From positions 848 to 64,847 of the forward strand of contig NZ_JAQGJV010000020.1 in the NCBI RefSeq assembly GCF_028290435.1: a DNA stretch of 64,000 nt. The letters are read 5' to 3'. Origin of the DNA: Devosia sp. (GTDB lineage Bacteria; Pseudomonadota; Alphaproteobacteria; Rhizobiales; Devosiaceae). Under the pieces are notes generated by a model. The model saw only the letters and a list, made by a program, of their open reading frames with translations, was not told where the DNA came from and made no database searches. The position numbers and the translations under genes were made by a program. Each line of letters begins with the position of its first letter. Within the stretch, counting starts at the first letter, position 1. Positions 1 through 15,553 of this stretch are shown in pieces.

Positions 1-160
1 CCCCGAATTCGGCGGCCAAGGCCTGGCGGATGTCGAGCGAGCCGGAAATCACCCGCAACTCGATAGCCTCGATGCCATAGGTTTGCGCCAGTTCTGCCGC
101 TTCGTGAACGGACAGATCGGGGCAGCCTAGGGTGGAGAAGCAATGGGTCAACGTGCTCAT
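1..160 (-). CDS. Sugar-phosphate isomerase/epimerase (TIM barrel), 5' part only
   Basis: Manual translation from ATG at 160: MSTLTHCFSTLGCPDLSVHEAAELAQTYGIEAIELR, typical of the N-terminus of this family. ATGA overlap with the upstream stop; runs off the window. Confidence 0.65.
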   Translation of the reverse strand, partial: MSTLTHCFSTLGCPDLSVHEAAELAQTYGIEAIELRVISGSLDIRQALAAEFG

Positions 161-1179
161 GCGATGCGGTCCAGTTCGGTTTCGCTCACCGCGAACAGCG
201 GCGGCTGGCCAGTGACGAAGCGTTCGATTTCGGTGATGGCGAGATCGGCCAGCCGGCGCAATTCATTGCCCTGGGCGCCGGCGATATGCGGCGTCAGCGC
301 GACATTGGGCAGATCGTAGAGCGGGCTTTCAGGCGGAAGCGGCTCGGGGTCTGGCGTATCGATCAGCACCCGCAGCCGCCCGGACTGCACTTCTGGCAGC
401 AGCGCATCGTGGTCGAGCAGCCAGCCGCGCGCGGTGTTGATGAGCACGGCATTGTCAGCCATCAGCGCCAGTTCGGCCGCGCCGATCATGTGGTGGGTTT
501 CGGGCAGGACCGGCGCGTGCAGCGATACCGTATCGGACCAGCCTAGCAGCGGGTGCAGGTCCATTTTGGTAGCGCCCATGGCGGCTGCATCCTCGGCGCT
601 GAGGAAGGGGTCGTAGACCGCGACGGCGAAATTGGCGTGCACCAGCATCTCGATGGTGAGCCTGCCTATGCGGGACGCGCCCACAATGCCGATACGGCGG
701 CGATAATTGCCGAGGTGCGACACGTCCATGCTGATGCGCGTGCCGAAGCCGCCCGTGCCGCGCTGCTCCCGATGGGTATCGCGGATGCGGAACACGTCCT
801 TGCCGCACATGATGATCGCGGCGAAGGTGAATTCGGCGACCGGCACGGCCATGGCCGACACCGCCGAGGTGATGAGAATGTCGCGCCGCCAGAACGGCGG
901 CGGGGCAACGGCGCGCACTGACGCCGCCGCATAGGCCACCATTTTGAGATTGGGCGCGCGCGCGAGCCGAGCTTCGGTCAAGGGAGGCACGCCCCAAGCG
1001 GCGAGCAGGATATCGGCATCGCGCAGGGCGGCTGCACCGGTGGGATCATCGAAATCGGTGAGGGCGTCGCGCAAGATGATGTCGGTGACCGCTTCAAGGC
1101 GCGTCCATTCCTCGGGGCCGAAGAAGCCAGCGGGCAATTCATCGCGCATGGCAAGCAGCAGCTTGGGTTTAGCGGTCAT
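157..1179 (-). CDS. D-isomer-specific 2-hydroxyacid dehydrogenase, NAD-binding
   Basis: GASRIG Rossmann motif plus SLHAP, INTARG and TPHIAG. Start re-called at MTAKPK, overlapping the upstream stop. Confidence 0.9.
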   Translation of the reverse strand: MTAKPKLLLAMRDELPAGFFGPEEWTRLEAVTDIILRDALTDFDDPTGAAALRDADILLAAWGVPPLTEARLARAPNLKMVAYAAASVRAVAPPPFWRRDILITSAVSAMAVPVAEFTFAAIIMCGKDVFRIRDTHREQRGTGGFGTRISMDVSHLGNYRRRIGIVGASRIGRLTIEMLVHANFAVAVYDPFLSAEDAAAMGATKMDLHPLLGWSDTVSLHAPVLPETHHMIGAAELALMADNAVLINTARGWLLDHDALLPEVQSGRLRVLIDTPDPEPLPPESPLYDLPNVALTPHIAGAQGNELRRLADLAITEIERFVTGQPPLFAVSETELDRIA

Positions 1180-2345
1180 GAGCGCACCGGAGCGGGAACG
1201 GGGCGGATGTCGATGTCGCCGATATCGAGATGGAGCGGGGTGGCTTCGGTGGCCAGGATCACGTCGAGGGTGAGGGTCGGCGAGTCCGTTCCCGGTCGCA
1301 GGCGGATGGGTGGTGTGCGCAAGAGGCCGCTCCAAGCCTCGGCCGGATAGGGCCAGAGTTGACCGTCGTCGGACTTGGAGGGGGCCAGGGAGATGGATCG
1401 CAGCCCCTCCTCCGCTGGATCGGTCAGAACGAGCGAGAGACCCAGAATGCCTTGATGGGCGGGCACGGCGATGGTGCAGCTGGCCGTTATCCAGGCGCCA
1501 GCACCGGGATAGACGATGTCGTCGGCCAGGACGTGGCTCGAACTAGCGGTTGCGTTGATCGACTGGTCTTGGGCGCGGGTGAGATTGCCGAGCGGGTTGT
1601 TGATGGCGTCGAAGCGGTCGTCCGGCGCTACGAGCCGGGGGGCGGCATGGGGGACGAGCGAGGCCAGGTAGGTGGCCAAGGCCTTCCCCACGGCGAAGCC
1701 GCCGGTGACGGAGAAATGGGTGCCGTCATTGGAGAAGCCGGCCTGGGGCGTGCCGTCGGGATCGGCGGTGTCGACCCAGGGGGCGTTCCAATCGAAGACG
1801 TGGCAATTGGCGTGGCGGGCGGCGAAATCCAGGCTCATCTGGTTGATCCAGTGCGCCTTGGCGCGCTCGGCGCCGCCTGATGCCCATTTTTGGGTGCCAC
1901 GCGCCAGAATGGGCAGCAGGATCACGGTCTTGCCGGCGGCGAGCACGGTCGTGGCGATGCGAGCACGGATTTCGGCGATGGTTTCCTTGGTTTCCACCAT
2001 CATGTCATTGGTGCCGGCATCGACAACGATCAGATCGAACTCCTCAGCCAGCAATCGGGCGACGCGCCGCTCGATCTCGATGGCCTTCTGGCCGGAGACG
2101 CCGAAATTGAGCCCGGTGAAGAAGCGACTGATGCCGGGCTGATTGCTGCGCTCCCAGCCTGGCACGACGGCCGGATCGTGATGGATCGGGCAGGCCAGCC
2201 GCCCATGCGACAGCACTTCGGCCCAGCTCATCCAGCCGCGCGCCGAGGTGGCGATATGACTGTCGCTGCCATTGTGATTTTGCTGCACGAGCGAGGTGCC
2301 AAGAATGGCAATTCGCCCGGCGCGGGGGATGGAAACAGCCATCAT
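1176..2345 (-). CDS. SGNH/GDSL hydrolase with extra C-terminal domain
   Basis: Blocks ILGTSL (Ser), FGVSGQ, DAGTND and DGTH. Start re-called at MMAVSIP after GAGG. Confidence 0.8.
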   Translation of the reverse strand: MMAVSIPRAGRIAILGTSLVQQNHNGSDSHIATSARGWMSWAEVLSHGRLACPIHHDPAVVPGWERSNQPGISRFFTGLNFGVSGQKAIEIERRVARLLAEEFDLIVVDAGTNDMMVETKETIAEIRARIATTVLAAGKTVILLPILARGTQKWASGGAERAKAHWINQMSLDFAARHANCHVFDWNAPWVDTADPDGTPQAGFSNDGTHFSVTGGFAVGKALATYLASLVPHAAPRLVAPDDRFDAINNPLGNLTRAQDQSINATASSSHVLADDIVYPGAGAWITASCTIAVPAHQGILGLSLVLTDPAEEGLRSISLAPSKSDDGQLWPYPAEAWSGLLRTPPIRLRPGTDSPTLTLDVILATEATPLHLDIGDIDIRPVPAPVRS

Positions 2346-2349
2346 TGCC

Positions 2350-3099
2350 TCAGGAATAGAGCACGCCACCGTTGATGTCGTAGCAGGCGCCGGTGATATA
2401 GGCCGCATCGTCGGACGCAAGGAACGCCACCAGCCCGGCCACGTCTTCGGAGGTGCCTTCACGCTTGAGCAGGGCCGCGCCCGCGACCCGTTCGCGCACT
2501 TCGGGCTTGGTGAAGGTGTCGTGGAAGGCAGTCGCGATCATGCCGGGGCAGACGGCGTTGACCCGAATACGCGGTCCGGCTTCCTTGGCCAAACCACGGG
2601 TAAAAGTCATCACCGCGCCCTTTGAGGTGGCGTAAGCGATGGCGCCGGGGCCGCCGCCGTCGCGACCGGCCTGAGAGGAGAAGGTGACGATGGCGCCGCC
2701 CTCGGTCATTTCGGGCAATACGGCTTGTGTCGTGAGGAAGAGCGAGGTGAGATTGACGCTCATCACCTGGTTCCAGAACGTCTCGTCCATTTCGGCCAAG
2801 GTCTTGCGCGCCACCAGCCCACCAGCGACATGGACCAGCCCATGGATGGCGCCGAAACGGTCGGTGGCGGCGGCCACGGCGGCGTCGACTGCTTCCTTCT
2901 GCGTCAGGTCGGCCTTGAGCGCGATGGCCTTGCCGCCGCGCTGTTCGATTTCGGCCACGGCGGAGCGGGCGCCCTCCTCCGCGCCATTATAGGTCAGCAC
3001 CACATTGGCGCCTTCCTCGGCAAAGCGCAGGGCGCAGGCGCGGCCGATATCGCGGCCGGCACCGGCAACGAGGACAGTCTTGTTGGAAAAGCGCTGCAT
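2350..3099 (-). CDS. SDR oxidoreductase, probable DEH (4-deoxy-L-erythro-5-hexoseulose uronate) reductase
   Basis: GAGRDIG, YATSK and NAVCPG motifs; directly downstream of the alginate lyase, as in Agrobacterium/Sphingomonas alginate loci. Confidence 0.85.
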
Positions 3100-3114: not shown

Positions 3115-5445
3115 CTAGAATTTCTTGGGAAGGGTGAGCTTGAAGCGCTGGTCATCGACATCGGTGAAATAGATGTCGGTGGCAAAACCCTGGTCGTCGA
3201 TGAAGCTGAAAATGCGCTTGGGCGCGTCGAGGCTGTAGGGGACCAGCAGGGTGACCAACACATGGCTCCTGGCTGCCGGAACGCTGGCCCGGATGTGATG
3301 GTGCTGTTCCAGTCCCTCGGTATCGGCGGGGTCGATTTCGGGGAAACCATGCACTGCAGTGATGGTGGGCGCGCCAGCGGACGAGAACACGAATTGCCCG
3401 TAAAACCCGGCCCGCTCGCCGTGATAGCGGAAGCTTGTGCGGCCGGCATCGGGCGCATTGGTGGTGTGGCAAAGCCAGTCCAGCGTGACGGGTTCGGTGG
3501 CTTCCACACGATCGACGATGACGAAATAGCTGTCATCGACGAAATGGATTTCGCGCTCGGCTTTCTGCACAAGCGGATTGGTCACGCGATACGCCTCGGT
3601 CGCGTCCCCGACGATGCGGACATGGCCGGGAGCTTCTTCGACGGAGACAATCTGGCCGGCGGCGCGACGGGCCAGGGCCTTGTCCTTGTCGGCATACTGG
3701 CCCTTGCCGTCGATCAGGATGGCATTTTTAGAGCGGGTCTGGCGCCGCCAGTCGCGGTGCATGCTGGAATTGAACGCCACGTAATGGCCGGACTGGATCG
3801 CCAGGTCCTCGCCATAGGCATAGAGCAGGAAGGCGTTTTGATCGCCGTGACTGTGGCTGAGCGAGCCATAGGCACTCGACTTGAACAGGAACTGAATGTG
3901 CCGCGCCGGATCATCCATGTGCTTCTGAATGGCGACCCAGCCGATATCTTTGAACCATTTTACGGCAGGCAGATCGGCCGGCGACAGCGCCTCGACCGGC
4001 GCGAAATCGTGCCGGTATTGCAGGTCGTCGAAATTGAGATCCCACCAGCCGTAATTGTAGAAGGCCATTTCGGTGCCGGCGGCGTCGGCCTTAAGTCGTT
4101 CGAAATACCATTGATAATGGCCGTTCCCCGTGACCCCGCCGAACTGGCGCACATTGTAGCCCACCTTGAGGCCGGGCAGATCGCCCAGCGTTGAATCATC
4201 GCCGAAGCAGGCGCGGCGCGTGCCGGGGGCCTTGGTGTAGAGCGGAAAGCCCCCGGTATTCTGGAAGAACGGGCGGCGATAGAGATCGACGCCGAGGTAT
4301 TTGCGCAGGAGATTAGCCGCCTCGATGAAATAGGCGATGCCGGTCATCCAGTAATGCGGACCCTCGGCCCAGCCGCCATCGGTGCCGGCCCAGGGCGAAT
4401 AAAGCGTGGCGAGGAAATCGAGCGTGTAGTCGAGCCAGACCGTGGCCTCCTCACTCTCGCCATCGAGCGCGATGCAGGCCGGGGTCAGCACGGCCGACAG
4501 CGAACGCACGGCGTGGCTGTCATAGGGGAAGACCTGGATGCGGGCATGGGCGATGACGTGGTTGGCCACTTCGCGCGTCCGGATCAGCAGCACGGCGCGG
4601 ACCTCGTCGCGCTCGGCCTCGGTCAGGTGATCGTGCAGCCAGTCATAGCCCCAGGCCAAAGCCACGACGACACGGAAACCGGCTTCGTCATTATAGGCGC
4701 GCGAGGTCGGCCCGGTCGGGTCCCAACGGGCAACGGCGAGCAGCCAGTCGCGAGATTTATCCAGCAGTTCGATACGGCCCAGCACCTTGCCGGCGATGGC
4801 GAGGTGGCGGATCGCGTAGATGATCTCCTGGCAGTCGATATACATCTGCCGCCACAGCGTCGCGACGCGGACATTGTCGGGATAGGGTTTCGGCTCGGCG
4901 ATGATGGGCCGGTCGATCCATGGAGCGACCGATTTCTCGTAGAACTGGTCCCAGCCGGCATGGCCGGCATCGGCTTTGACCGAGGCCAAGAATGTGCCCA
5001 GCTCGTCCGGATTCATCCACAGTCGGGGATGGCGCAAATCGCTCGCCGCGCGGCGAGCCGCGATCGATGGCACCGGCGTTTCTGGCAAACCTTCGGCCAG
5101 ATCGAAACTGCGGACGCTGCTCCAATCCGAACCTGCTGCGCCGGTCTTGCCGTCCCAAAGGGCGTAGCTCCAGAAATGGCGACCCGGCGGCAGTGATGCA
5201 TCGGGGGTGAAGAAATTCCACGCGAGGTCCGTGTGGACGCTGGTGCGGCCTTCGGGAAAGCTCGAAGCATCGGAGACGCGCAGCACATAGCGCGCACCGT
5301 CGTCGATATCGGGTAGCCATGAAAAGCGCGGCGGGTTCTCCGTCGGCGCGTGGTCCGCGTCGGGCATATAGGTGATGGTCAACGAACCCGGCCGGGGTTC
5401 ATCGAGAATGGATTTGCGCAGCTTGGCCGGGGCAGAGGAACGCAT
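3115..5445 (-). CDS. Exotype oligoalginate lyase, PL15 (Atu3025-like)
   Basis: Segments recalled from A. tumefaciens Atu3025: DEPRPGSLTI, TENPPRFSW, YDSHAVRS, WAEGPHYW, SHSHGDQNAF, C-terminal FKLTLPKKF. Confidence 0.92.
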   Translation of the reverse strand: MRSSAPAKLRKSILDEPRPGSLTITYMPDADHAPTENPPRFSWLPDIDDGARYVLRVSDASSFPEGRTSVHTDLAWNFFTPDASLPPGRHFWSYALWDGKTGAAGSDWSSVRSFDLAEGLPETPVPSIAARRAASDLRHPRLWMNPDELGTFLASVKADAGHAGWDQFYEKSVAPWIDRPIIAEPKPYPDNVRVATLWRQMYIDCQEIIYAIRHLAIAGKVLGRIELLDKSRDWLLAVARWDPTGPTSRAYNDEAGFRVVVALAWGYDWLHDHLTEAERDEVRAVLLIRTREVANHVIAHARIQVFPYDSHAVRSLSAVLTPACIALDGESEEATVWLDYTLDFLATLYSPWAGTDGGWAEGPHYWMTGIAYFIEAANLLRKYLGVDLYRRPFFQNTGGFPLYTKAPGTRRACFGDDSTLGDLPGLKVGYNVRQFGGVTGNGHYQWYFERLKADAAGTEMAFYNYGWWDLNFDDLQYRHDFAPVEALSPADLPAVKWFKDIGWVAIQKHMDDPARHIQFLFKSSAYGSLSHSHGDQNAFLLYAYGEDLAIQSGHYVAFNSSMHRDWRRQTRSKNAILIDGKGQYADKDKALARRAAGQIVSVEEAPGHVRIVGDATEAYRVTNPLVQKAEREIHFVDDSYFVIVDRVEATEPVTLDWLCHTTNAPDAGRTSFRYHGERAGFYGQFVFSSAGAPTITAVHGFPEIDPADTEGLEQHHHIRASVPAARSHVLVTLLVPYSLDAPKRIFSFIDDQGFATDIYFTDVDDQRFKLTLPKKF

Positions 5446-5517: not shown

Positions 5518-7101
5518 CTATTGCGCGGCGCCGTATTGGCGGTCATAGGCGGTCTGCATGACCGCGATGACTTGGTCGTAGCCCATATCGGTCAGGCGCT
5601 GCTTGTAGGCATCCCAGCCGGTATTGATGTCCTGCGCGCCAAGCACCCAGGTCTGCTGCATCTCGGTCATGTAGGTGAGCAGGCTCGGCCAGTATTGATC
5701 GTAGATCGCCTTTTCCTCGGCATTGAGCGCGACCCCCAGGAACTCGTCCTTGAGGCAATCGCATTTCTCGTACATGGCGATGCCATCGAGCGCGATCTGG
5801 TTGGTCCACTGGCGCTCATATTCATAGTCCATCCAGTAACCGCGCGGCACCTGGGCGCCCACGGCCCAGAGCTGGGCATTGACCGGCTCGCCATTGGTCA
5901 GCAGCTCTTTTTTGAACTGCGGCTTGCCGTCGACCATGTCGTAGGTCAGCCCTTCGACGCCGAAATTCGACATGGTCCGGCCCTGTTCGGAGAACCAGAA
6001 GTCGAAATATTTGATGGTTTCGACCGGGTGTTGGTTGGTGGCCGATATGGCCCAGCCGGCGGGCTGCACCTGTTGGCGGCGCGTGTCCTCGAAGCGGTCG
6101 CCCGACACGGTCTTGGGCGGCAGCATGGGGACGAAGTTGAAACCCTCGATGGTGGGCCGCAGCGCGTCATTATAGGTGGCGGTGCTGGCGAACCAGTCAT
6201 GCATCATGCCGCCCAGATTGTTGCCGAGCAGGAATTCGCGCGACCGGGAGCCGCGGGTGAAGATCTCCTTGTCGATCAGCCCTTCCTTGTACCACTGCGC
6301 CACATTGGAAATGCCGGTTTTGTAGTTCTCTTCAGCCCAGGGATGGCGCACCTTGCCGTCATAGGTGGCAAAATCGCCGTAGCGCTCGGAGCCGGAGACG
6401 CGGGCGTCCCAGAGGTTGATCAGGCGGACGGCATCGACCACATCCCGGGCGAAGTACGGGACTTCGTCCTTGACGCCATTGCCATTGGGGTCCTGGTCGC
6501 GGAAGGCCGTGAGGACGGCGTGGACTTCCTCTGGCGTTTCAGGCTGCTTCAGGCCCAGCTTGTCCAGCCAGTCCTGGCGGATAAACCAGCCGCGCGAAAA
6601 CTTCCCGTCCGGCACATAGGGGATGAAGTAGATATTGCCGTCCGGGCCCGAGATCGATGCCTTGATCGCAGGGTGGCTGTCGAAGAAGGCCTTGAGATTC
6701 GGCGCGTTCTGTTCGATCAGGTCGTTGAGCGGAACGAAGGCGCCCTCCAGCCCGTAACGGATGAAATCGTCCTTCAGCCCGCCCGTCGCGTCGCCACCCA
6801 CGATGTCGGGCAGATTGCCCGAAGCGATCAACAGGTTGAAGGCGTCGCGACTGCTGGTCGTTGCCAGCGAGGCCACATTGCGCACGTGGATATTGGTTAG
6901 CTCGGCGGCCTTCTTCTCCACCGGCCAATCTTCCGTGTAGACGTATTTGTCGCGGAAATGGAAGTGGATGGTGAGCTCGAGCGGCTCCTCGGTAATCTTA
7001 GGCGCCTCCTGCGCCCAGGCCAGATTTGGGATGACCAGGTTTGGTGCGGTCAGGGCGACCGCGATGGTCATGCTCAACACGCCTTTGAGAAATGCTTTCA
7101 C
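5518..7101 (-). CDS. algQ: Alginate-oligosaccharide ABC substrate-binding protein (AlgQ1/Q2-like)
   Basis: Signal peptide; IHFHFRDKY, YFIPYVPDG, HDWFAST and DYEYERQW match recalled Sphingomonas A1 AlgQ. Confidence 0.88.
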   Translation of the reverse strand: MKAFLKGVLSMTIAVALTAPNLVIPNLAWAQEAPKITEEPLELTIHFHFRDKYVYTEDWPVEKKAAELTNIHVRNVASLATTSSRDAFNLLIASGNLPDIVGGDATGGLKDDFIRYGLEGAFVPLNDLIEQNAPNLKAFFDSHPAIKASISGPDGNIYFIPYVPDGKFSRGWFIRQDWLDKLGLKQPETPEEVHAVLTAFRDQDPNGNGVKDEVPYFARDVVDAVRLINLWDARVSGSERYGDFATYDGKVRHPWAEENYKTGISNVAQWYKEGLIDKEIFTRGSRSREFLLGNNLGGMMHDWFASTATYNDALRPTIEGFNFVPMLPPKTVSGDRFEDTRRQQVQPAGWAISATNQHPVETIKYFDFWFSEQGRTMSNFGVEGLTYDMVDGKPQFKKELLTNGEPVNAQLWAVGAQVPRGYWMDYEYERQWTNQIALDGIAMYEKCDCLKDEFLGVALNAEEKAIYDQYWPSLLTYMTEMQQTWVLGAQDINTGWDAYKQRLTDMGYDQVIAVMQTAYDRQYGAAQ

Positions 7102-7125: not shown

Positions 7126-8007
7126 TTATTCTTTGACGCCACCCAGCAGGATGCCTTTGGTGAAATAGCGCTGGGCGTAGGGGTAAATGATGAGGACGGG
7201 AATGATCGAGGCGACCATGATCGCGGCCGTTACCGTCTCGAACGAGTACTGGGCATTGAGCAGGCTCGAAGCGAATTCGTCGTTGGAATTGAGATCGACG
7301 ATGACGCGCTTGAGATAGACCTGCAGCGGGATTTTATCTTCGCCGCGCAGCAGCACCATGGCCCAGAAATAGCCGTTCCAGCGCGAGACGATGCAGAACA
7401 GCGCAACCGTGACGATCGCGGGTTTGGAGAGGGGAATGAACACCTTCCACAGCAGTTGGATTTCGCTGGCGCCATCCATCTTGGCGGCTTCCTCGAAGGA
7501 CTTGGGAACGGCTTCGAAGAAGTTGCGCAGCAGGATCACGTTGAAGGCATTGCAGGCAAAGCCGATGATGATGCCGAAGCGGCTATCGAGCAGTCCCAGA
7601 TCCCGCATATTGAGGAAGAAGGGGATCATGCCGGCGTTGAACCAGAGCGTGAAGGCGATGGCGATGTTGAAGAATGTCCGCCCGCGCAGCCGCTTGCGGG
7701 ACAGCGCATAGGCGCCCGGGATCATGATGAGGAGGCTCATCAGCGTGCCGCCGAAGGTGTAGATGAAGGTGTTGCCATAGGCGACCCAGAACATCTTGTC
7801 CGACAGCACCCGCTCGTAGGCGGCCAGTGTCAGCCCGACCGGAAAGAACGTGACCTTGCCCGAGGTGACGGCCGCGCCCGAAGACACCGACACCGCCAGG
7901 ATGTAGATGAACGGATACAGCGTCGAGAGCACGAACAGCGTCAGCAGGACCGCATTGGCCCATCCGAAAATCTTGTCGCCGCGCGTATAGAGATTGAAGG
8001 CTGCCAT
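7126..8007 (-). CDS. algM2: ABC permease (AlgM2-like)
   Basis: EAA loop FEEAAKMDGA, TM helices, operon position. Confidence 0.85.
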   Translation of the reverse strand: MAAFNLYTRGDKIFGWANAVLLTLFVLSTLYPFIYILAVSVSSGAAVTSGKVTFFPVGLTLAAYERVLSDKMFWVAYGNTFIYTFGGTLMSLLIMIPGAYALSRKRLRGRTFFNIAIAFTLWFNAGMIPFFLNMRDLGLLDSRFGIIIGFACNAFNVILLRNFFEAVPKSFEEAAKMDGASEIQLLWKVFIPLSKPAIVTVALFCIVSRWNGYFWAMVLLRGEDKIPLQVYLKRVIVDLNSNDEFASSLLNAQYSFETVTAAIMVASIIPVLIIYPYAQRYFTKGILLGGVKE

Positions 8008-8018
8008 TTATCTTCTCC

Positions 8019-8948
8019 TCACCACAGCGACGTCGACGACAGCTTCCGGCTGATCCGGTTGGCCGAGTAGACGAGGACGAAGGCGATGACGGCGTTGAAC
8101 AGGCCGGCAGCAGTTGCCAGGTCGTATTGGGTGCCCTGCAGGCCGGTGCGGTAAATGAAGGTGGAGACCACGTCGGCCGTCTCGTAGGTCGAGGGCTGGT
8201 AGAGCAGGATGATGTATTCAAAGCCCACTTCGACCAGATTGCCGATGCGGATGATCAGCATGATGATGATGGTGGGCAGGATGCAAGGCAGCGTGATGCG
8301 CCACATCATCTGCCAGCGCGAGGCGCCGTCGACGCGGGCACTTTCGTAAAGCGTCGGGCTGACCCCGGCGATCGCCGCCAGATAAACGATGGATTCAAAA
8401 CCCGCTTCCTTCCAGACGCTGGACCCGATGAAGATGGTTCGGAACCACTCGGGCTGGGTCAGGAAATAGATGGGTTCGAGGCCGACCCATTTGAGCAGGA
8501 TGTTGATGACCCCGGTCGATGGCGACAGAAAATTGATGACGATACCGGCGACGATGACCACCGAGATGAAGTGCGGCAGATAGACCACGGTCTGGGCCCA
8601 GCGCCGCGCCACCGCGCTCTGCACTTCGTTGAACATCAGCGCCAGGATGATCGGTACCGGGAAGGCGAAGATCAGGCCGATTGAGCTGATAATGATGGTG
8701 TTGAAGAACGCGCGGATGAACAGCCCGTTGTTGAACAGCTCCTGGAAATGGGCGAACCCGACCCAGGGGCTGGCAGCGACGCCGCGGAAAATCGAAAAAT
8801 CCTTGAAGGCGATCTGCAGCCCGTCCATGGGCTTGTAGAGGAACAGCACAAACCAGATGACCATGGGCGCCAGCAGCAGGTAGAGCTGCCAATCGCGCTT
8901 CAGATCTTCGCCGAGCGTGCGCAGATATTCGCGAAAGCGGTGGTCCAT
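8019..8948 (-). CDS. algM1: ABC permease (AlgM1-like)
   Basis: LYESARVDGA EAA motif, YLPHFIS. Start re-called at MDHRFRE. Confidence 0.85.
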   Translation of the reverse strand: MDHRFREYLRTLGEDLKRDWQLYLLLAPMVIWFVLFLYKPMDGLQIAFKDFSIFRGVAASPWVGFAHFQELFNNGLFIRAFFNTIIISSIGLIFAFPVPIILALMFNEVQSAVARRWAQTVVYLPHFISVVIVAGIVINFLSPSTGVINILLKWVGLEPIYFLTQPEWFRTIFIGSSVWKEAGFESIVYLAAIAGVSPTLYESARVDGASRWQMMWRITLPCILPTIIIMLIIRIGNLVEVGFEYIILLYQPSTYETADVVSTFIYRTGLQGTQYDLATAAGLFNAVIAFVLVYSANRISRKLSSTSLW

Positions 8949-8958
8949 CGCCCTGCCC

Positions 8959-10062
8959 TCACGCCAGCGTCTTGAGGGTTCGACCCGTTTCGGCGTCGAA
9001 GACATGCATGCGACTAGTGTCGATCCCCAATCGGCGGATATCGGCGAGGTCGTGGATGGCCGAAAGGGTCTCGGCCTTGGCGATGAAGGGATGATCATCG
9101 ATGCGGCCATGCAGCAGCGCCTCGGCACCCAGCGGCTCGACCAGATCGATGACGCAGTCGATGCCCTCGGCGGCGGAATCCGCTGCGACCAGCATGGCCT
9201 CGGGCCGGATGCCGAGCTTGACGGCTTGGCCGTCCCTTGTGTTGCGGGCGAAAGCCTCGGGAATGGCCAGGCTCTGCCCTGCCCCACCAGCAATCACGCC
9301 ACGAGCCTTGCCATCGACCATCGAGATTGTCGCGTCGATCAGGTTCATCGGCGGGGAGCCGATAAAGCTGGCCACAAAGGTATTGGCCGGCTCAAGAAAC
9401 ACGTCCATGGGCGAGCCGACCTGCTCGATATGGCCGTTGTTCATGATGACGATACGGTCAGCCAGTGTCATGGCCTCGACCTGGTCATGCGTCACGTAAA
9501 TGCTGGTGGCTTCCATCCGGCGGTGCAGCAGCTTGATCTCGGCGCGCATATGGGTACGCAGCTTGGCATCGAGATTGGAAAGCGGCTCGTCGAACAGGAA
9601 AACCTTGGGCTTGCGTACGATGGCGCGGCCCATGGCGACGCGCTGGCGCTGGCCACCGGAGAGGTCGGCGGGCTTGCGCTTGAGATACTCGGTCAGGCCC
9701 AGAATTTGCGCTGCCTCGGCCACCGCCTTGTTGACCACATCCTTCTTTTCGCGCCGCACCCGCAGCCCGAAGGCGATGTTTTCAGCCACATCGAGATGGG
9801 GGTAGAGCGCATAGTTCTGGAACACCATGGCCACGTCGCGATCTTTGGGCGCGACCTTGTTGACCGTGCGCCCGCCGATGGACACCGTGCCGCCTGATAT
9901 GTCTTCGAGCCCGGCCACCATGCGCAAGGTTGTCGACTTGCCGCAGCCGGAGGGACCCACCAGCACCACGAATTCCTTGGGTTGGATGGAGAGGTTGATG
10001 CCGTGCACAACCTCAAGCGCGCCATAGCGCTTGACGACGTCGTTGATCTCGACTGCGGACAT
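8959..10062 (-). CDS. algS: ABC ATPase (AlgS/MalK-like)
   Basis: [25 protein letters not shown]. Confidence 0.9.
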   Translation of the reverse strand: MSAVEINDVVKRYGALEVVHGINLSIQPKEFVVLVGPSGCGKSTTLRMVAGLEDISGGTVSIGGRTVNKVAPKDRDVAMVFQNYALYPHLDVAENIAFGLRVRREKKDVVNKAVAEAAQILGLTEYLKRKPADLSGGQRQRVAMGRAIVRKPKVFLFDEPLSNLDAKLRTHMRAEIKLLHRRMEATSIYVTHDQVEAMTLADRIVIMNNGHIEQVGSPMDVFLEPANTFVASFIGSPPMNLIDATISMVDGKARGVIAGGAGQSLAIPEAFARNTRDGQAVKLGIRPEAMLVAADSAAEGIDCVIDLVEPLGAEALLHGRIDDHPFIAKAETLSAIHDLADIRRLGIDTSRMHVFDAETGRTLKTLA

Positions 10063-10104: not shown

Positions 10105-10896
10105 CTATTCAGCGACCGTCTTGGACCCACGCGGAGCGCGCTTCTTGGGCACGCGGGTATTGATCTGTTCGATATAGGCCCAGATCTTGGGGTTCTTGGA
10201 GAGTTCGGCGATCTTGGATTCGAGCGAGCCCAGATGCTTGGCAACGGCCTGCTGCGCCGCCTCCACGTCGCCCGATTCAATGGCCACGACGATGGCCTCG
10301 TGCTCGCTGATCACCTGCTCGGTGCGGCGCACGGCGAAGACGCGCTTGAGATGGCGCATGCGGTCCATTTCGCCCTTGGCCTGGTTGACCACGCTCCAGG
10401 CACCCGGAAGGCGGGCGGCCGCAAAAATCGTGCGATGGAATTCCTCATCGAGCAGGAAGAAGTTCGTGAATTCTTCGTCTTCGGCCGCCGTGCGCTGTTC
10501 GGCGAGGCAGGTCTTGAGGCGCGCTATGTCCTCGAAACTGTGCCGCTTGGTGGCCTCGATCACCGCGCCCTCTTCCAGCTTGAAGCGGATGAAGCAGGCT
10601 TCCATGTAGCGTTGCACGTCAATGGGCGCGACATAGGTTCCACCCTGCGGCACGACCTTCAGGAAGCCGTCCTCCGACAGCCGGATGATGGCCTCGCGGA
10701 CCGGCGTCTTGCTGACATGCAGCAGCGCCGCGATTTCTTTTTCCGACAGCGCCCGCCCGGGCAGCAGCTTCACCTCGACGATCAGCTTGCGCAGCAGGCC
10801 GTAGATTCGATTGGCCATATTGCCGACCGATGGCAGCTCATCGGAACGCACAAGTTCCGACAACGGCAGTGATGGAAATTCGCTCGTAGGAGACAT
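10105..10896 (-). CDS. GntR (FCD) transcriptional regulator
   Basis: wHTH SEKEIA..VSKTPVREA and FCD DEEFH; heads the alginate operon. Confidence 0.9.
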   Translation of the reverse strand: MSPTSEFPSLPLSELVRSDELPSVGNMANRIYGLLRKLIVEVKLLPGRALSEKEIAALLHVSKTPVREAIIRLSEDGFLKVVPQGGTYVAPIDVQRYMEACFIRFKLEEGAVIEATKRHSFEDIARLKTCLAEQRTAAEDEEFTNFFLLDEEFHRTIFAAARLPGAWSVVNQAKGEMDRMRHLKRVFAVRRTEQVISEHEAIVVAIESGDVEAAQQAVAKHLGSLESKIAELSKNPKIWAYIEQINTRVPKKRAPRGSKTVAE

Positions 10897-11171: not shown

Positions 11172-12038
11172 GTGTTGGCAGACCAGACCAAGGACAGACC
11201 GCCGGCGATCGAGTTCGCAACCTTCATGGCCGAGCTGACCGAGCGCGAGAGCAAGCTCAGCCGCCGCCTGCAGCAGGTGGCGCGCTTCTTCGTCAACAAT
11301 CCCGAGGATGTGGCGATCCACACCATCGTCGAACTGGCGCGCCAGGCCGGGGTGCAGCCCTCCGCCATCACCCGCTTCGCCAAGGAGATGGGGTTTGCCG
11401 GCTTCAACGGCCTGCAGAGCGTGTTCCGGCAGCGTCTGCTCGGACCGCGGATGACCTACGACGAGCGCATGAAGTCCTTCGCCGATGCGCCGCGGCCCAC
11501 CAAATCCAAGGTGTTGCATCTCGACGAGCCGAGCCTGGTTTTCGACACCTTCGTGCAGGCTGCCATGGACACGCTGATCCGGTTGCGCGAAGACGTGGAT
11601 CGCCTAGAGCTTCAGGGGTTTGTGGATGTGCTCGCAAAATCCGGCGCGGTTCACATTCTTGGCGCGCGCGGCGCCTACGGTGTCGCTACCTACTGTTATT
11701 ACAGCCTATCGCGCGTCGGCAAACGCGCCCACCTGATCGACAATGTCGGCTCGATGCGCGAGCAACAGCTCGCCGCCGTCGATGCGAATGACGTGCTGTT
11801 GGTGCTGACATTCGACGATTACACCCCCGAAACCATCGACATCGCCCAAGCGGCGCACCAGAAAGGCCGCACGCTCCTGGTGATCACCGACAACGAGCTC
11901 AGCCCGGTGGCAAAGCTCGGGGCGCACACGCTGTTCGTCAAGGAAGCCCGGCTCGGCCACTTCCGCTCGCAGGTGCCCGCCATGGTCTTGTGCCAGTCGA
12001 TCATTATCAGCCTGGGAAAGCTGATCGAGCGCGCCTAG
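11172..12038 (+). CDS. RpiR/MurR (IolR-like) regulator, HTH + SIS
   Basis: TIVELA..AGVQPSAITRF HTH and SIS domain with GAR.AY. Confidence 0.88.
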   Translation: MLADQTKDRPPAIEFATFMAELTERESKLSRRLQQVARFFVNNPEDVAIHTIVELARQAGVQPSAITRFAKEMGFAGFNGLQSVFRQRLLGPRMTYDERMKSFADAPRPTKSKVLHLDEPSLVFDTFVQAAMDTLIRLREDVDRLELQGFVDVLAKSGAVHILGARGAYGVATYCYYSLSRVGKRAHLIDNVGSMREQQLAAVDANDVLLVLTFDDYTPETIDIAQAAHQKGRTLLVITDNELSPVAKLGAHTLFVKEARLGHFRSQVPAMVLCQSIIISLGKLIERA

Positions 12039-12045
12039 ACTGGTC

Positions 12046-13221
12046 CTAAAGCCTGGTCCAGGCGGAGCCCGCTAGGCTCGAATTCACCGCAGCCTCGATG
12101 AACCGCATGCCGAGCAGGCCATCCTCGACGCTGGGCACATGCCCGCCACTGGCCCCCTCTCCGCTCCGCCGCCGCAGGATCGCGTCGACCGCGTCGCGGT
12201 AAAGATTGGCAAAGCCCTCGATATAGCCCTCGAGATGCTCGGACGGCATCCGCGACACGTCGGCCGAGGCTGGGCCGAGGCCGGGACCGCCCCGGACGAG
12301 AATGCGGGTCGGCTCGCCGAACGGGGTGAAGCGCATGATCTCGGGCTCATGCCCCAGCCATTCGAGGCCGGCCTTGTCACCGTAAAGCTTGAGCGCCAGG
12401 CGATTGCCGCTTCCGGGCGACACCTGGCTGGCGATCAGCACGCCGCGGGCGCCATCTGCGTAGCGCAGCAGCACATGGGCATTGTCATCCAGCCGGCGGC
12501 CGGGAACAAAGGTGGTTAGATCTGCCGCGACAGCCTCCGGCGCCATGCCGGTGACGAACTGCGCCAGGTTGAAGGCGTGCACGCCGATATCGGCAAGGCA
12601 GGCCGAGCGGCCGGCGCGCTCGGGATCGGTGCGCCACTCCGCCTGCTTCTGGCCGTCGGCATCGATCGGCTGGGTCAGCCAATCCTGGATATATTCAACG
12701 CGGACCACGCGCAGCGTGCCGAGCTGGCCTGCCGCCACCATGGCACGGGCCTCACGGACCATCGCATAGCCGGTATTGTTGAAGGTCACGGCAAACACCA
12801 GGCCGGAGGCCCTGGCGAGGGCGGCAAGCTCTTCGGCCTCCGCCAGCGTTGCCGAGAGCGGCTTGTCGCAGATAACGTCGATGCCGGCGGCGAGGAACGC
12901 CTTGGCGACCGGCGCGTGCAGATGATTGGGCGTCACAATGATGACGGCCTCGATGCCGTCGGGGCGCCCAGCCTCGCGCTCGGCCATTTCGGCAAAACTC
13001 GAATAAGCGCGGTCGGCCCCAATGCCGATATCGGCTGCCGAGAGACGCGCGCGTTCCGGGTCCGACGACAGGGCGCCGGCGACCAGTTCGGTGCGATCGT
13101 CGAGCCGCGCCGCCATGCGGTGCACGGCGCCGATGAAGGCATCGCGCCCCCCACCAACCATGCCGATCCTCAGGCGCCGCGTGGCGCGGGCATCACTGCG
13201 TGCATCAACCATTTTTGCCAC
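12046..13221 (-). CDS. Gfo/Idh/MocA oxidoreductase
   Basis: IGMVGGG, TPNHLH, CDKP, DIGVH. Confidence 0.9.
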   Translation of the reverse strand: MAKMVDARSDARATRRLRIGMVGGGRDAFIGAVHRMAARLDDRTELVAGALSSDPERARLSAADIGIGADRAYSSFAEMAEREAGRPDGIEAVIIVTPNHLHAPVAKAFLAAGIDVICDKPLSATLAEAEELAALARASGLVFAVTFNNTGYAMVREARAMVAAGQLGTLRVVRVEYIQDWLTQPIDADGQKQAEWRTDPERAGRSACLADIGVHAFNLAQFVTGMAPEAVAADLTTFVPGRRLDDNAHVLLRYADGARGVLIASQVSPGSGNRLALKLYGDKAGLEWLGHEPEIMRFTPFGEPTRILVRGGPGLGPASADVSRMPSEHLEGYIEGFANLYRDAVDAILRRRSGEGASGGHVPSVEDGLLGMRFIEAAVNSSLAGSAWTRL

Positions 13222-13241
13222 CCCTTGGCAGACGACTTACT

Positions 13242-14762
13242 CTAGATCAGCGCCGCGACGACTTCGATGGCTGGCGCGGCGCGCAACTGCCCGACGAATT
13301 GGGCGAGCCTGGCTTTGACCGGCTCATTGTCCACCAGGTCGGTGCCGAAAATATCCGCGAGCTTCAGCATTTCGGCAACGAAACCCGCCGGATCGCTGCC
13401 ATAGCGGCGACCGATCTCCGTGGTCACCCAAGCCTTGGGGTCGCGCACATCGATGGGCTTGTTCTGCCAGTGCAGGCCGCCCGCGTAGCACATCCATCCC
13501 GCGATGCCGAGCAGCAGGCCATTGGCCGGGCGACCAGCCGTGAGGCACGCGTGGAGCGGTTCGAGCAAGCGCTGCCTGATCTTCTGCGACCCGTCGGTCG
13601 AAATCTGCAGCGTGCCGTGCTTGAGGTCGCCATTTTTCAACCGGCGGATCGATTGCTCGACATAGGCCAGCACGTCGATGCCGGAAACCGGGGGCAGTCC
13701 CGGCACCACTTCGTCCATGATGGTGCGCCGCGCAAAGGTCTCGAATACCTCGCTGCCCATGACTTCGGACATGAATTGCAAATCCGACAGCAGGCCAAGC
13801 TGGCACACATTGGACTGGATGCCGTTCAGCACCCGCATCTTGAGGATTTCATAGGGCCGCACGTCATCCACGATGAGCGCCCCGACCCGGTCCCAGGCCG
13901 GCATGGCGCAGCGATGCGTGTCCTCGATCACCCACATGCGGAACGGCTCGCCGACGACAAGGCCGAAATCGGCAATGCCGGTTTGCGCGGCAAAGCGCTC
14001 GATATCGCCCGGTTGCGTCGCCGGCACGATGCGGTCGACCATGGTGTTGAGGAAATGCACGTCCCGGGCAATGCGGTCGCCAATCGCGGCGTCGACGCGC
14101 TGGGCCAGTCCGAGAACGGCCCGCCGCAGCGTCGCGCTATTGTCGGGCACGTTGTCGCAACTCATGATCGCCAGCGGGCCCGCCCCGCGCTGCAACCGCA
14201 GCGTCAGCGCTTCGAGGATAAAACCAGGGACGGAGCGCGGAGCGCGCGGATCGGCGATGTCGTGCACGATATCGGGATGGTCGAGGTCAAGCTCGCCGGT
14301 CGCGGGGATGTGGCAATAGCCCTTCTCCGTCACCGTCAGGGTGATCAGCCGGATGGCTGGATCGGCCGCGGCCTCGAGCGCCACGCGGAGCGACAATCGA
14401 TAGGGATCGTAGCTCTCGTCCAGCACCGAGATATGCGCGATTTCCGAGCCGACCAGGCGGCGATCAACGGCGCCATCCTCGCGCAGTTCGCGGCAGAACA
14501 GGCCCGACTGGGCGCCGAGCGCGTTGGCGATATCGGGCGCACGCAGATTGATGCCGACGATTCCCCAGTCGCCGAATGCGGCCTGCAGCGCATCGTCGGT
14601 CCACTCGGCCTGGTGGCAGCGGTGGAAAGCGCCGTCGCCAAGATGGACAATGCCCGGCTTGAGTTTCGTGCGGTCGTAGGCGGGGCGCTGCACTGATGCG
14701 GGCAGTTGCGCCGCCGTAGCGGGCGTCAGGCGCTCGGCACCCACGAGCGGCAAGACGCTCAT
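13242..14762 (-). CDS. Mannitol dehydrogenase family (mannonate/fructuronate oxidoreductase-like)
   Basis: IVHLGDGAFHRCHQA, TVTEKGY, SCDN, MVDRIVP, KMRVLNG. Start re-called at MSVLPL. Confidence 0.88.
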   Translation of the reverse strand: MSVLPLVGAERLTPATAAQLPASVQRPAYDRTKLKPGIVHLGDGAFHRCHQAEWTDDALQAAFGDWGIVGINLRAPDIANALGAQSGLFCRELREDGAVDRRLVGSEIAHISVLDESYDPYRLSLRVALEAAADPAIRLITLTVTEKGYCHIPATGELDLDHPDIVHDIADPRAPRSVPGFILEALTLRLQRGAGPLAIMSCDNVPDNSATLRRAVLGLAQRVDAAIGDRIARDVHFLNTMVDRIVPATQPGDIERFAAQTGIADFGLVVGEPFRMWVIEDTHRCAMPAWDRVGALIVDDVRPYEILKMRVLNGIQSNVCQLGLLSDLQFMSEVMGSEVFETFARRTIMDEVVPGLPPVSGIDVLAYVEQSIRRLKNGDLKHGTLQISTDGSQKIRQRLLEPLHACLTAGRPANGLLLGIAGWMCYAGGLHWQNKPIDVRDPKAWVTTEIGRRYGSDPAGFVAEMLKLADIFGTDLVDNEPVKARLAQFVGQLRAAPAIEVVAALI

Positions 14763-15553
14763 GGGCCGCGTCGGGCCGGTGCGCCGACCACGCTCTGTTC
14801 GAGATCGACCAAGGCGCCGGTCATCAGGCCAGCGCTGTCGCTCAGCATGAACAAGGCGAGCTGGGCGACCTCGTCGTCGGCAAGCATGCGCCCGAGCGGC
14901 ATGTTGGCCGCGGCCCGCGCGGCCCAATCGGCACCCTTGCCAAGCGTAGCGCTCTGCATCTGGTTCTCGCCGGGGGTTGCGGCCCAGCCCATCATGATGC
15001 CGTTGACGCGGATCCGGTCGGCCAGATGCGCATTGGCGGCGTTGCGCGTCAGGGTTGTGAGAGCCCCCTTGGTGGCCGAATAGATGGCCAGTTCCGGAGT
15101 GCCGCAATAGGCGTTCATCGACAGGATATTGACGATGGCGCCCGGCGCCTTGCGGCCGAGCATGTCGCGGATGGCGGCCTGCATCAGGAAGTACGGTGCC
15201 TTGGCGTTGACCGCGAACAGCTTGTCCCACAGCTCCGGCGATCCGTCGAGGAACGAAGCTCGATCGGTGCGGCCCGCCGCGTTGACCAGCGCGTCGATGC
15301 GACCGAACCGCTTGATGGTCGCGGCGGCGACCGTTTCGGCGGCCTCAGCCTCCCCCAAATCGGCGGCAATGAAATCGACCAGGCATTGCTGGGTGCCGAG
15401 GTCTCGCGCCAGTGCCCTGCCCCGCTCGGTATCACGACCGGTCAACATCACACCGGCAGCGCCGCCGGCGACGGTGAGCGCGGCAACCTTGGCGCCGACG
15501 CCCTGCGTCGATCCCGTCACCAGTACGATCTTGCCGTCCAACCGAACGTCCAT
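14759..15553 (-). CDS. SDR oxidoreductase
   Basis: TGSTQGVG, NAAG, YSATK. Start re-called at MDVRLDGK. Confidence 0.88.
   Translation of the reverse strand: MDVRLDGKIVLVTGSTQGVGAKVAALTVAGGAAGVMLTGRDTERGRALARDLGTQQCLVDFIAADLGEAEAAETVAAATIKRFGRIDALVNAAGRTDRASFLDGSPELWDKLFAVNAKAPYFLMQAAIRDMLGRKAPGAIVNILSMNAYCGTPELAIYSATKGALTTLTRNAANAHLADRIRVNGIMMGWAATPGENQMQSATLGKGADWAARAAANMPLGRMLADDEVAQLALFMLSDSAGLMTGALVDLEQSVVGAPARRGP

Follow-up and report, generated by a model that had tools for sequence, protein, structure and literature searches.

In an alginate-utilization operon of Devosia sp. (NCBI RefSeq assembly GCF_028290435.1), one gene encodes a hydrolase of the SGNH/GDSL superfamily that is, in our view, probably an intracellular O-acetyl esterase acting on imported oligomers of bacterial alginate or on the unsaturated monomers released from them. 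The gene lies near the beginning of a 64,000-nucleotide stretch of contig NZ_JAQGJV010000020.1 (positions 848 to 64,847), which was analyzed as a whole and is here called the window; coordinates refer to it unless another record is named. We are fairly confident of the wider claim that the operon is served by this product as a working carbohydrate esterase of some kind. Its fold, its catalytic residues, the absence of an export signal, its coupling to the operon, synteny, purifying selection, and kinship with phage proteins were established directly.

In the pathway that we favor, O-2/O-3-acetylated oligomannuronates of the Pseudomonas or Azotobacter alginate type would enter the cell through an importer resembling AlgQ/AlgM1M2/AlgS. 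[quoted passage not shown] Both the acetyl-alginate substrate and this order of steps are what we infer. A bolder version, which we offer tentatively and with some doubt, holds that the protein is the first catabolic alginate O-deacetylase and founder of a new carbohydrate esterase family, a phage virion module captured once by a plasmid-borne Rhizobiales operon, where it would allow soil and rhizosphere bacteria to feed on acetylated biofilm alginate of Pseudomonas and Azotobacter and would be unneeded by marine versions of the operon.

Gene Model and Catalytic Residues

A preliminary description of the window, prepared from its sequence alone, had placed the gene at 1176-2345, named four complete SGNH blocks (GTS, GxxG, GTND, and DGTH), and seen no evident signal peptide. 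The coordinates are correct: the open frame holds 389 codons and a stop, TGA at 1176-1178. Two candidate ATG codons stand at 2345 and 2342, with a GAGG 2 nt upstream of the first and 5 nt upstream of the second. Database homologues are 388-389 amino acids (aa) long and the ESM Atlas record begins at residue 2; because of these lengths, that record, and the spacing of the GAGG, the ATG at 2342 is the likelier start. The second methionine (M2) is invariant in one homologue alignment (A1) and at least 90% conserved in another (A2). A 428-aa frame from a GTG at 2462 was rejected, as it overlaps the upstream SDR gene and its extension is found in no homologue. Homologues in other Devosia are 91% identical.

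All four blocks are confirmed by translation (Table 1). In an alignment of 75 homologues that extends down to 27% identity, G16, T17, S18, G82, G85, D207, and H210 are invariant; within block II, V83 and Q86 are invariant as well, and S84 is at least 90% conserved. Both Pfam GDSL families were matched above their cut-offs, Lipase_GDSL_2 (PF13472) with 48.8 bits against 32.9 and Lipase_GDSL (PF00657) with 30.4 bits against 23.6, and database entries carry the names "SGNH/GDSL hydrolase" and "lysophospholipase L1-like". Since the nucleophilic serine is residue 18, no signal peptide is possible, and the esterase is therefore cytoplasmic. Judged by translation and by structural model, it is an intact member of the SGNH/GDSL superfamily, on which the four blocks, the profiles, and the fold agree.

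Predicted Fold and C-Terminal Domain

An AlphaFold2 model built from the 75-sequence alignment has a mean predicted local distance difference test score (pLDDT) of 94.3 and places a standard SGNH fold (three-layer alpha/beta/alpha, flavodoxin-like) at about residues 6-235. The best structural match in VIA is 4RSH, with a Z of 21.0 and a root-mean-square deviation (rmsd) of 2.1 Å over 171 aligned residues; all 50 VIA entries listed have a Z of at least 14, and they span model residues 2-255, with two ranges wider than this. Among these matches are acetyl-xylan and sialate esterases, members of carbohydrate esterase (CE) families CE2 (Z 14.6-14.8), CE3 (Z 16-17), and CE16 (Z 14.9), and platelet-activating factor acetylhydrolase. 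A sequence search of the PDB returned a best E of 0.3 and no informative relative, and no NCBIfam model matched the esterase. Of the SGNH-fold families of CAZy (CE2, CE3, CE6, CE12, CE16, and CE17), no solved member was matched by sequence in that search, and the likeness seen for CE2, CE3, and CE16 is one of fold.

The extra C-terminal segment seen in the preliminary description is present, though it amounts to about 150 aa (residues 240-389) and not to about 130. Structure prediction, which had been proposed for it, gave a beta-sandwich with a pLDDT of 91.1 when the domain was modeled alone. Its structural matches include the carbohydrate-binding modules (CBMs) CBM16 (Z 9.0), CBM61 (Z 8.6), and CBM4/22, a hyaluronan-binding module (Z 8.4), and carbohydrate-binding domains of phage tail fibers, all within a range of Z 8-9.7 that supports only a common arrangement. 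In the clade of 389-aa proteins to which the Devosia esterase belongs, this domain lacks about 40 aa that are present in the 425-440 aa forms of other operons and in the viral forms. We read it as an inherited glycan-binding module that would now be under relaxed selection. That a fast-evolving, partly deleted CBM-like module is shared with phage proteins had not been foreseen.

Operon Context and Conservation

By its position the gene is translationally coupled into the operon: the SDR stop codon (2350-2352) lies 4 nt upstream of the esterase ATG, and the start codon of the following dehydrogenase gene overlaps the esterase stop. The alginate-operon setting assumed from the start is borne out, because the PL15 lyase is close to Atu3025 and the binding protein is close to AlgQ1 (Table 1), and the operon can therefore be taken to handle alginate. 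The 11-kb locus aligns along 99% of its length, at 90% identity, with a 533-kb plasmid of Devosia neptuniae.

A scan of one genome per species yielded 35 loci with an esterase relative, 33 of which preserve the order GntR-ABC-AlgQ-PL15-SDR-SGNH; these span several families of Rhizobiales and belong to Agrobacterium, Rhizobium, Neorhizobium, Aliirhizobium, Ensifer, Nitratireductor, Chelatococcus, and Devosia. The dehydrogenase follows the esterase only in the 389-aa clade (Agrobacterium, Rhizobium, and Devosia), and not in the Ensifer/Chelatococcus clade; in Ensifer adhaerens (locus L029, of the 425-440 aa clade), the esterase stands directly after the SDR as the last and only extra gene of the operon, followed by convergent genes. 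Of the genes added to the operon, then, the esterase alone is shared by every Rhizobiales version. Many copies are carried on plasmids or chromids. The gene is rare: a sample of 400 further genomes, spread evenly over the order and including six from its own genus, gave no homologue at E <= 1e-20.

Ratios of nonsynonymous to synonymous substitution rates (dN/dS) were computed against four orthologues of 91-62% identity. They came to 0.085-0.14 for the catalytic domain, 0.07-0.15 for PL15, 0.09-0.13 for the SDR, and 0.27-0.45 for the C-terminal domain of the esterase. Between loci the whole esterase is 61-66% identical, as against 75-92% for neighboring genes; this lower figure arises because the C-terminal domain diverges, as the contrast in dN/dS indicates.

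Some copies are incomplete. In Devosia sp. A8/3-2 (L024), the gene call gives an esterase of 306 aa, and the matches to the substrate-binding protein and to PL15 are partial too, possibly through assembly indels. A Rhizobium sullae chromid (H59) retains only 30% of the esterase, and partial copies occur away from any alginate operon in Rhizobium aethiopicum (L032) and Ensifer adhaerens SD006 (L036).

An SGNH protein next to alginate genes might also work in the opposite direction, as an acyltransferase like the SGNH-like AlgX/AlgJ or like OatA. We hold this to be most improbable. C-terminal domains of OatA do appear among the structural matches at a Z of about 14, but the Devosia protein is cytoplasmic, its operon is catabolic and not biosynthetic, and no MBOAT or AT3 partner is encoded there. 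Membership in AlgX/AlgJ is not indicated either: Pfam ALGX gave no match at E <= 0.01, and both a signal peptide and an operon-borne MBOAT are lacking.

Terrestrial and Marine Operons

Algal alginate is unacetylated, and the alginate of Pseudomonas and Azotobacter is acetylated on mannuronate (PMC11921355, PMC4444821), a modification that protects it against most lyases (PMC4444821). The distribution of the esterase can be set against this background. Among the plasmids and chromids of the plasmid collection, a full-length PL15 of at least 55% identity occurs in 18 records. The esterase lies about 0.8 kb downstream of PL15 in all 11 Rhizobiales records, which come from nodules, roots, rhizosphere, and soil, although the Rhizobium sullae copy is truncated, and in none of the seven marine Rhodobacterales records. 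The latter are from Limimaricola, Marinovum algicola, Tropicibacter, Jannaschia, a sea-cucumber isolate, Pseudooceanicola algae (from Fucus), and Falsirhodobacter algicola (from a red alga).

In the Limimaricola and Falsirhodobacter loci (L064 and L065, on plasmids of marine Paracoccaceae), the order ABC-AlgQ-PL15-SDR is the same and other genes begin 40-170 nt after the SDR, leaving no gene-sized gap. The esterase was found neither by tblastn on these two loci nor when the complete plasmids were searched with a profile. Both loci contain a small cupin gene, perhaps KdgF-like, which the Rhizobiales operon does not have, and Limimaricola also carries a sugar kinase and a PL7 lyase gene downstream. 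The contrast in gene content fits a role on O-acetylated bacterial alginate and is what our hypothesis would predict. In addition, Atu3025 prefers polymannuronate (PMC11921355), and it is mannuronate that bacteria acetylate.

Kinship with Phage Virion Proteins

Outside the operon clade, the closest kin of the esterase are virion proteins of phages that apparently combine the same two domains. Those homologues that are 450-630 aa long match the PHROG family phrog_6102 ("lipase") over its full length and with both domains, and some of their N-termini match tail-protein families; the Devosia esterase itself matches phrog_6102 with an E of 7e-37, at profile positions 28-253 of 442 only. The best viral structure match, in BFVD, comes from Pseudomonas syringae phage nickie and is a protein of 688 aa labeled "GDSL-like lipase" (E 3e-42, TMq 0.88, 30% identity), in which both domains superpose and the first 74 residues match tail-fiber anchors. 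Foldseek also matched the esterase to the two-domain acetyl-mannan esterase 6HFZ and to esterase tail fibers. In IMG/VR, 22 contigs encode relatives of the esterase, one of which (L050, 5992-7365) has a 457-aa homologue whose gene stands apart from the tail genes, flanked by those for the portal and the major head protein.

A maximum-likelihood tree joins the operon proteins in one clade, with a Shimodaira-Hasegawa-like approximate likelihood ratio test (SH-aLRT) value of 100, and nests the 389-aa forms among the 425-aa forms. The lineages adjoining this clade are viral or metagenomic; the root is not secure. On these sequence relationships, capture of the operon esterase from a phage appears likely.

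The genome of phage nickie (L037, 29071-38836) bears, in a row, three SGNH paralogues (of 688, 787, and 455 aa) and a beta-helix protein of 953 aa whose annotation is "particle-associated lyase" and which has a tail-fiber anchor N-terminus like that of the 688-aa esterase. The 953-aa protein was considered as an alginate lyase partner and dropped, as it matched no lyase family and gave only a weak NosD beta-helix hit and matches to tail-fiber anchors. The kinship hints that related virion esterases of P. syringae phages might act on alginate.

A captured phage esterase could merely be riding in the operon, with a general short-chain or lysophospholipase-like housekeeping activity or with no part in alginate use. 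The viral relatives, the database label of lysophospholipase L1-like, the relaxed and partly deleted C-terminal domain, the truncated copy of Rhizobium sullae and the orphan copies L032 and L036, and the gene's absence from the 400 other sampled genomes would all suit such a passenger. Against this, lineages that share no more than 48-66% identity have all preserved its position, its coupling, and purifying selection on its catalytic domain; the operon proteins also form the single clade just described, and its 389-aa and 425-aa subclades parallel the PL15 identity groups (75-77% vs. 65-68%). A passenger gene is not expected to be retained in this manner, and we regard this explanation as quite unlikely.

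Weighing the Substrate

We return to the deacetylase that we favor. Residues conserved only in the operon clade include the basic K87, directly after block II, K153, and R69, all near the catalytic blocks; they are suggestive, in that they would suit an anionic or polyanionic substrate. The earlier reading of the gene as an alginate deacetylase has held up in that the gene is intact, under selection, cytoplasmic, bound to the operon, absent from its marine versions, and kin to virion esterases; its substrate is still a matter of inference.

Several points weigh against this reading and should be kept in mind. The SGNH fold, although confirmed, reveals nothing about the substrate, the CBM-like domain is poorly conserved, and the kinship with phage proteins offers no established substrate to carry over. 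The split between terrestrial and marine operons is also the split between Rhizobiales and Rhodobacterales, that is, one evolutionary contrast, and it is confounded by the further genes (cupin, PL7, and kinase) in which the operons differ. That acetylation hinders lyases of the Atu3025 type is an assumption. The literature, the PDB, and NCBIfam yielded no characterized relative and no biochemistry of the esterase or a close homologue, and our literature searches found no paper on this esterase and none mentioning Atu3026-3029.

A real operon esterase might instead cleave a different ester, either an acyl group on an imported uronate oligosaccharide (rhizobial polymers of the acetylated glucuronan type, for example) or an ester or lactone of a uronate that arises in the pathway. 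The silence of the fold on specificity leaves room for this, as does the want of a characterized homologue in the PDB and NCBIfam, and the dehydrogenase and TIM-barrel protein of the 389-aa clade represent unexplained pathway steps. To our knowledge, however, lactonase activity is not typical of SGNH enzymes. Moreover, both lyase and binding protein closely resemble proteins shown to act on or bind alginate, on which acetyl is the only known natural ester (PMC4444821). We judge a different ester to be unlikely.

The lyases of the organism limit the ecological idea that it could consume the biofilm alginate of other bacteria. Atu3025 is reported as the only alginate lyase of A. fabrum C58 (PMC4866713). 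In this Devosia genome, a profile search with a working control did not find PL5 (PF05426); the corresponding search for PL7 (PF08787) gave no match and was uninformative, as the control genomes were silent too. With no PL5 gene found, the organism probably relies on oligosaccharides or has the exolyase as its sole tool, and it may scavenge oligomers or use its exolyase rather than attack the intact biofilm polymer. The genome has two further genes with a heparinase II/III C-terminal domain (G000:C62:19546-20241 and G000:C1:19041-19754), in frames of 955 and 582 aa, which may encode additional polyuronate or glycosaminoglycan lyases.

Features of the Locus

The features of the esterase and its operon are collected in Table 1. 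The dehydrogenase and the TIM-barrel protein encoded behind the esterase have no explained place in alginate or uronate metabolism. Adjoining the operon in divergent orientation (window 11172-15230) are genes for an RpiR/SIS regulator, a Gfo/Idh/MocA oxidoreductase, and a protein of the mannitol-dehydrogenase family, a family that includes mannonate/fructuronate oxidoreductases; these genes may form a linked hexuronate branch.

Table 1. Coordinates and assignment of the esterase, its parts, and the surrounding operon
Feature	Position	Strand	Length or residues	Basis
SGNH esterase gene	1176..2345	-	389 aa from ATG 2345, probably 388 aa from ATG 2342	Pfam GDSL families; 100 homologues
Catalytic SGNH domain	1632..2345	-	residues 1-238	AlphaFold2 pLDDT 94; structural matches Z 21-14; dN/dS 0.085-0.14
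Block I, GTS, nucleophile Ser18	2292..2300	-	residues 16-18	translation; invariant in 75 homologues
Block II, GVSGQ (GxxG), oxyanion Gly85	2088..2102	-	residues 82-86	translation; 75 homologues
Block III, GTND, oxyanion Asn113	2004..2015	-	residues 111-114	G111, T112, N113, and D114 each at least 90% in 75 homologues
Block V, DGTH, triad Asp207/His210	1716..1727	-	residues 207-210	D207 and H210 invariant in 75 homologues
C-terminal beta-sandwich, CBM-like domain	1179..1631	-	residues 239-389	separate model, pLDDT 91; dN/dS 0.27-0.45
Xylose-isomerase-like TIM-barrel gene	G000:C22 228-1007 (L041), just outside the window			ATGA overlap with dehydrogenase gene
D-2-hydroxyacid dehydrogenase	157..1179	-	340 aa	ATG overlaps esterase stop (ATGA)
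SDR oxidoreductase, presumed DEH reductase	2350..3099	-		441 bits to 3EDM
PL15 exotype oligoalginate lyase	3115..5445	-	776 aa	1395 bits to Atu3025 structure 3A0O, residues 1-776
AlgQ1/AlgQ2-type alginate-binding protein	5518..7101	-		674 bits to Sphingomonas AlgQ1
ATP-binding cassette (ABC) importer: two permeases and MalK-type ATPase	7126..10062	-		family match
GntR/FCD regulator, operon head	10105..10896	-		family match

Comparison with Known Systems

One close system is the Atu3025 cluster of Agrobacterium fabrum C58, which has the same operon in the same order; in the Agrobacterium loci, a 389-aa orthologue of 61-64% identity stands directly after the SDR. The Atu3025 literature that was surveyed, which did not include Ochiai 2006 and 2010, treats the lyase only, and comparisons of such clusters are silent on the esterase. 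If our reading is true, it would explain the use of alginate by plant-associated Rhizobiales where seaweed is absent, add a missing step to the textbook pathway of import, lyase, and reductase, and provide a helper enzyme that, paired with the Atu3025 exolyase, could serve to break down acetylated alginate in Pseudomonas biofilms.

Just one alginate deacetylase has been reported, the N-module of PsmE from Pseudomonas syringae (PMC4444821). This too is a predicted SGNH hydrolase, and it removes O-acetyl groups from alginate (PMC4444821); the two proteins are compared by description only. PsmE is secreted and fused to a mannuronan C-5 epimerase, whereas the Devosia esterase belongs to a catabolic operon. 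Because PsmE serves modification of the polymer and not its breakdown, the Devosia protein would, if it acts as we propose, be the first catabolic alginate deacetylase. Should deacetylation be confirmed, it would probably also represent a new esterase family, the SGNH families of CAZy having been compared by PDB sequence and by fold.

The virion esterases of phages (phrog_6102, phage nickie) apparently share the two-domain module, which superposes in the case of nickie, and by fold the likeness extends to deacetylases of the G7C gp63.1 type (4QNL, Z 14.6). Phage G7C gp63.1, one characterized example, reportedly de-O-acetylates surface polysaccharides. The phage proteins have N-terminal tail-fiber anchors or are encoded within head modules, and they act extracellularly on polymers; the Devosia esterase is an anchorless cytoplasmic protein with a shortened C-terminal domain, encoded in a catabolic operon.

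The acetyl-mannan esterase of Roseburia intestinalis (6HFZ) likewise joins an SGNH domain to a CBM-like beta-sandwich (Foldseek E 1e-7, VIA Z 14.2). The two differ in that no sequence relationship was detected, their domain placement is not superposable (rmsd of about 19 Å over both domains), and the presumed Devosia substrate is a polyuronate handled by lyases. In both systems, however, the esterase is encoded together with an ABC importer and depolymerizing enzymes, and 6HFZ acts after import. By analogy, the design would parallel that of acetyl-esterases that act inside the cell once an ABC importer has taken up acetylated manno- or xylo-oligosaccharides; an accessory SGNH acetyl-esterase within a glycan-utilization operon is a familiar design.

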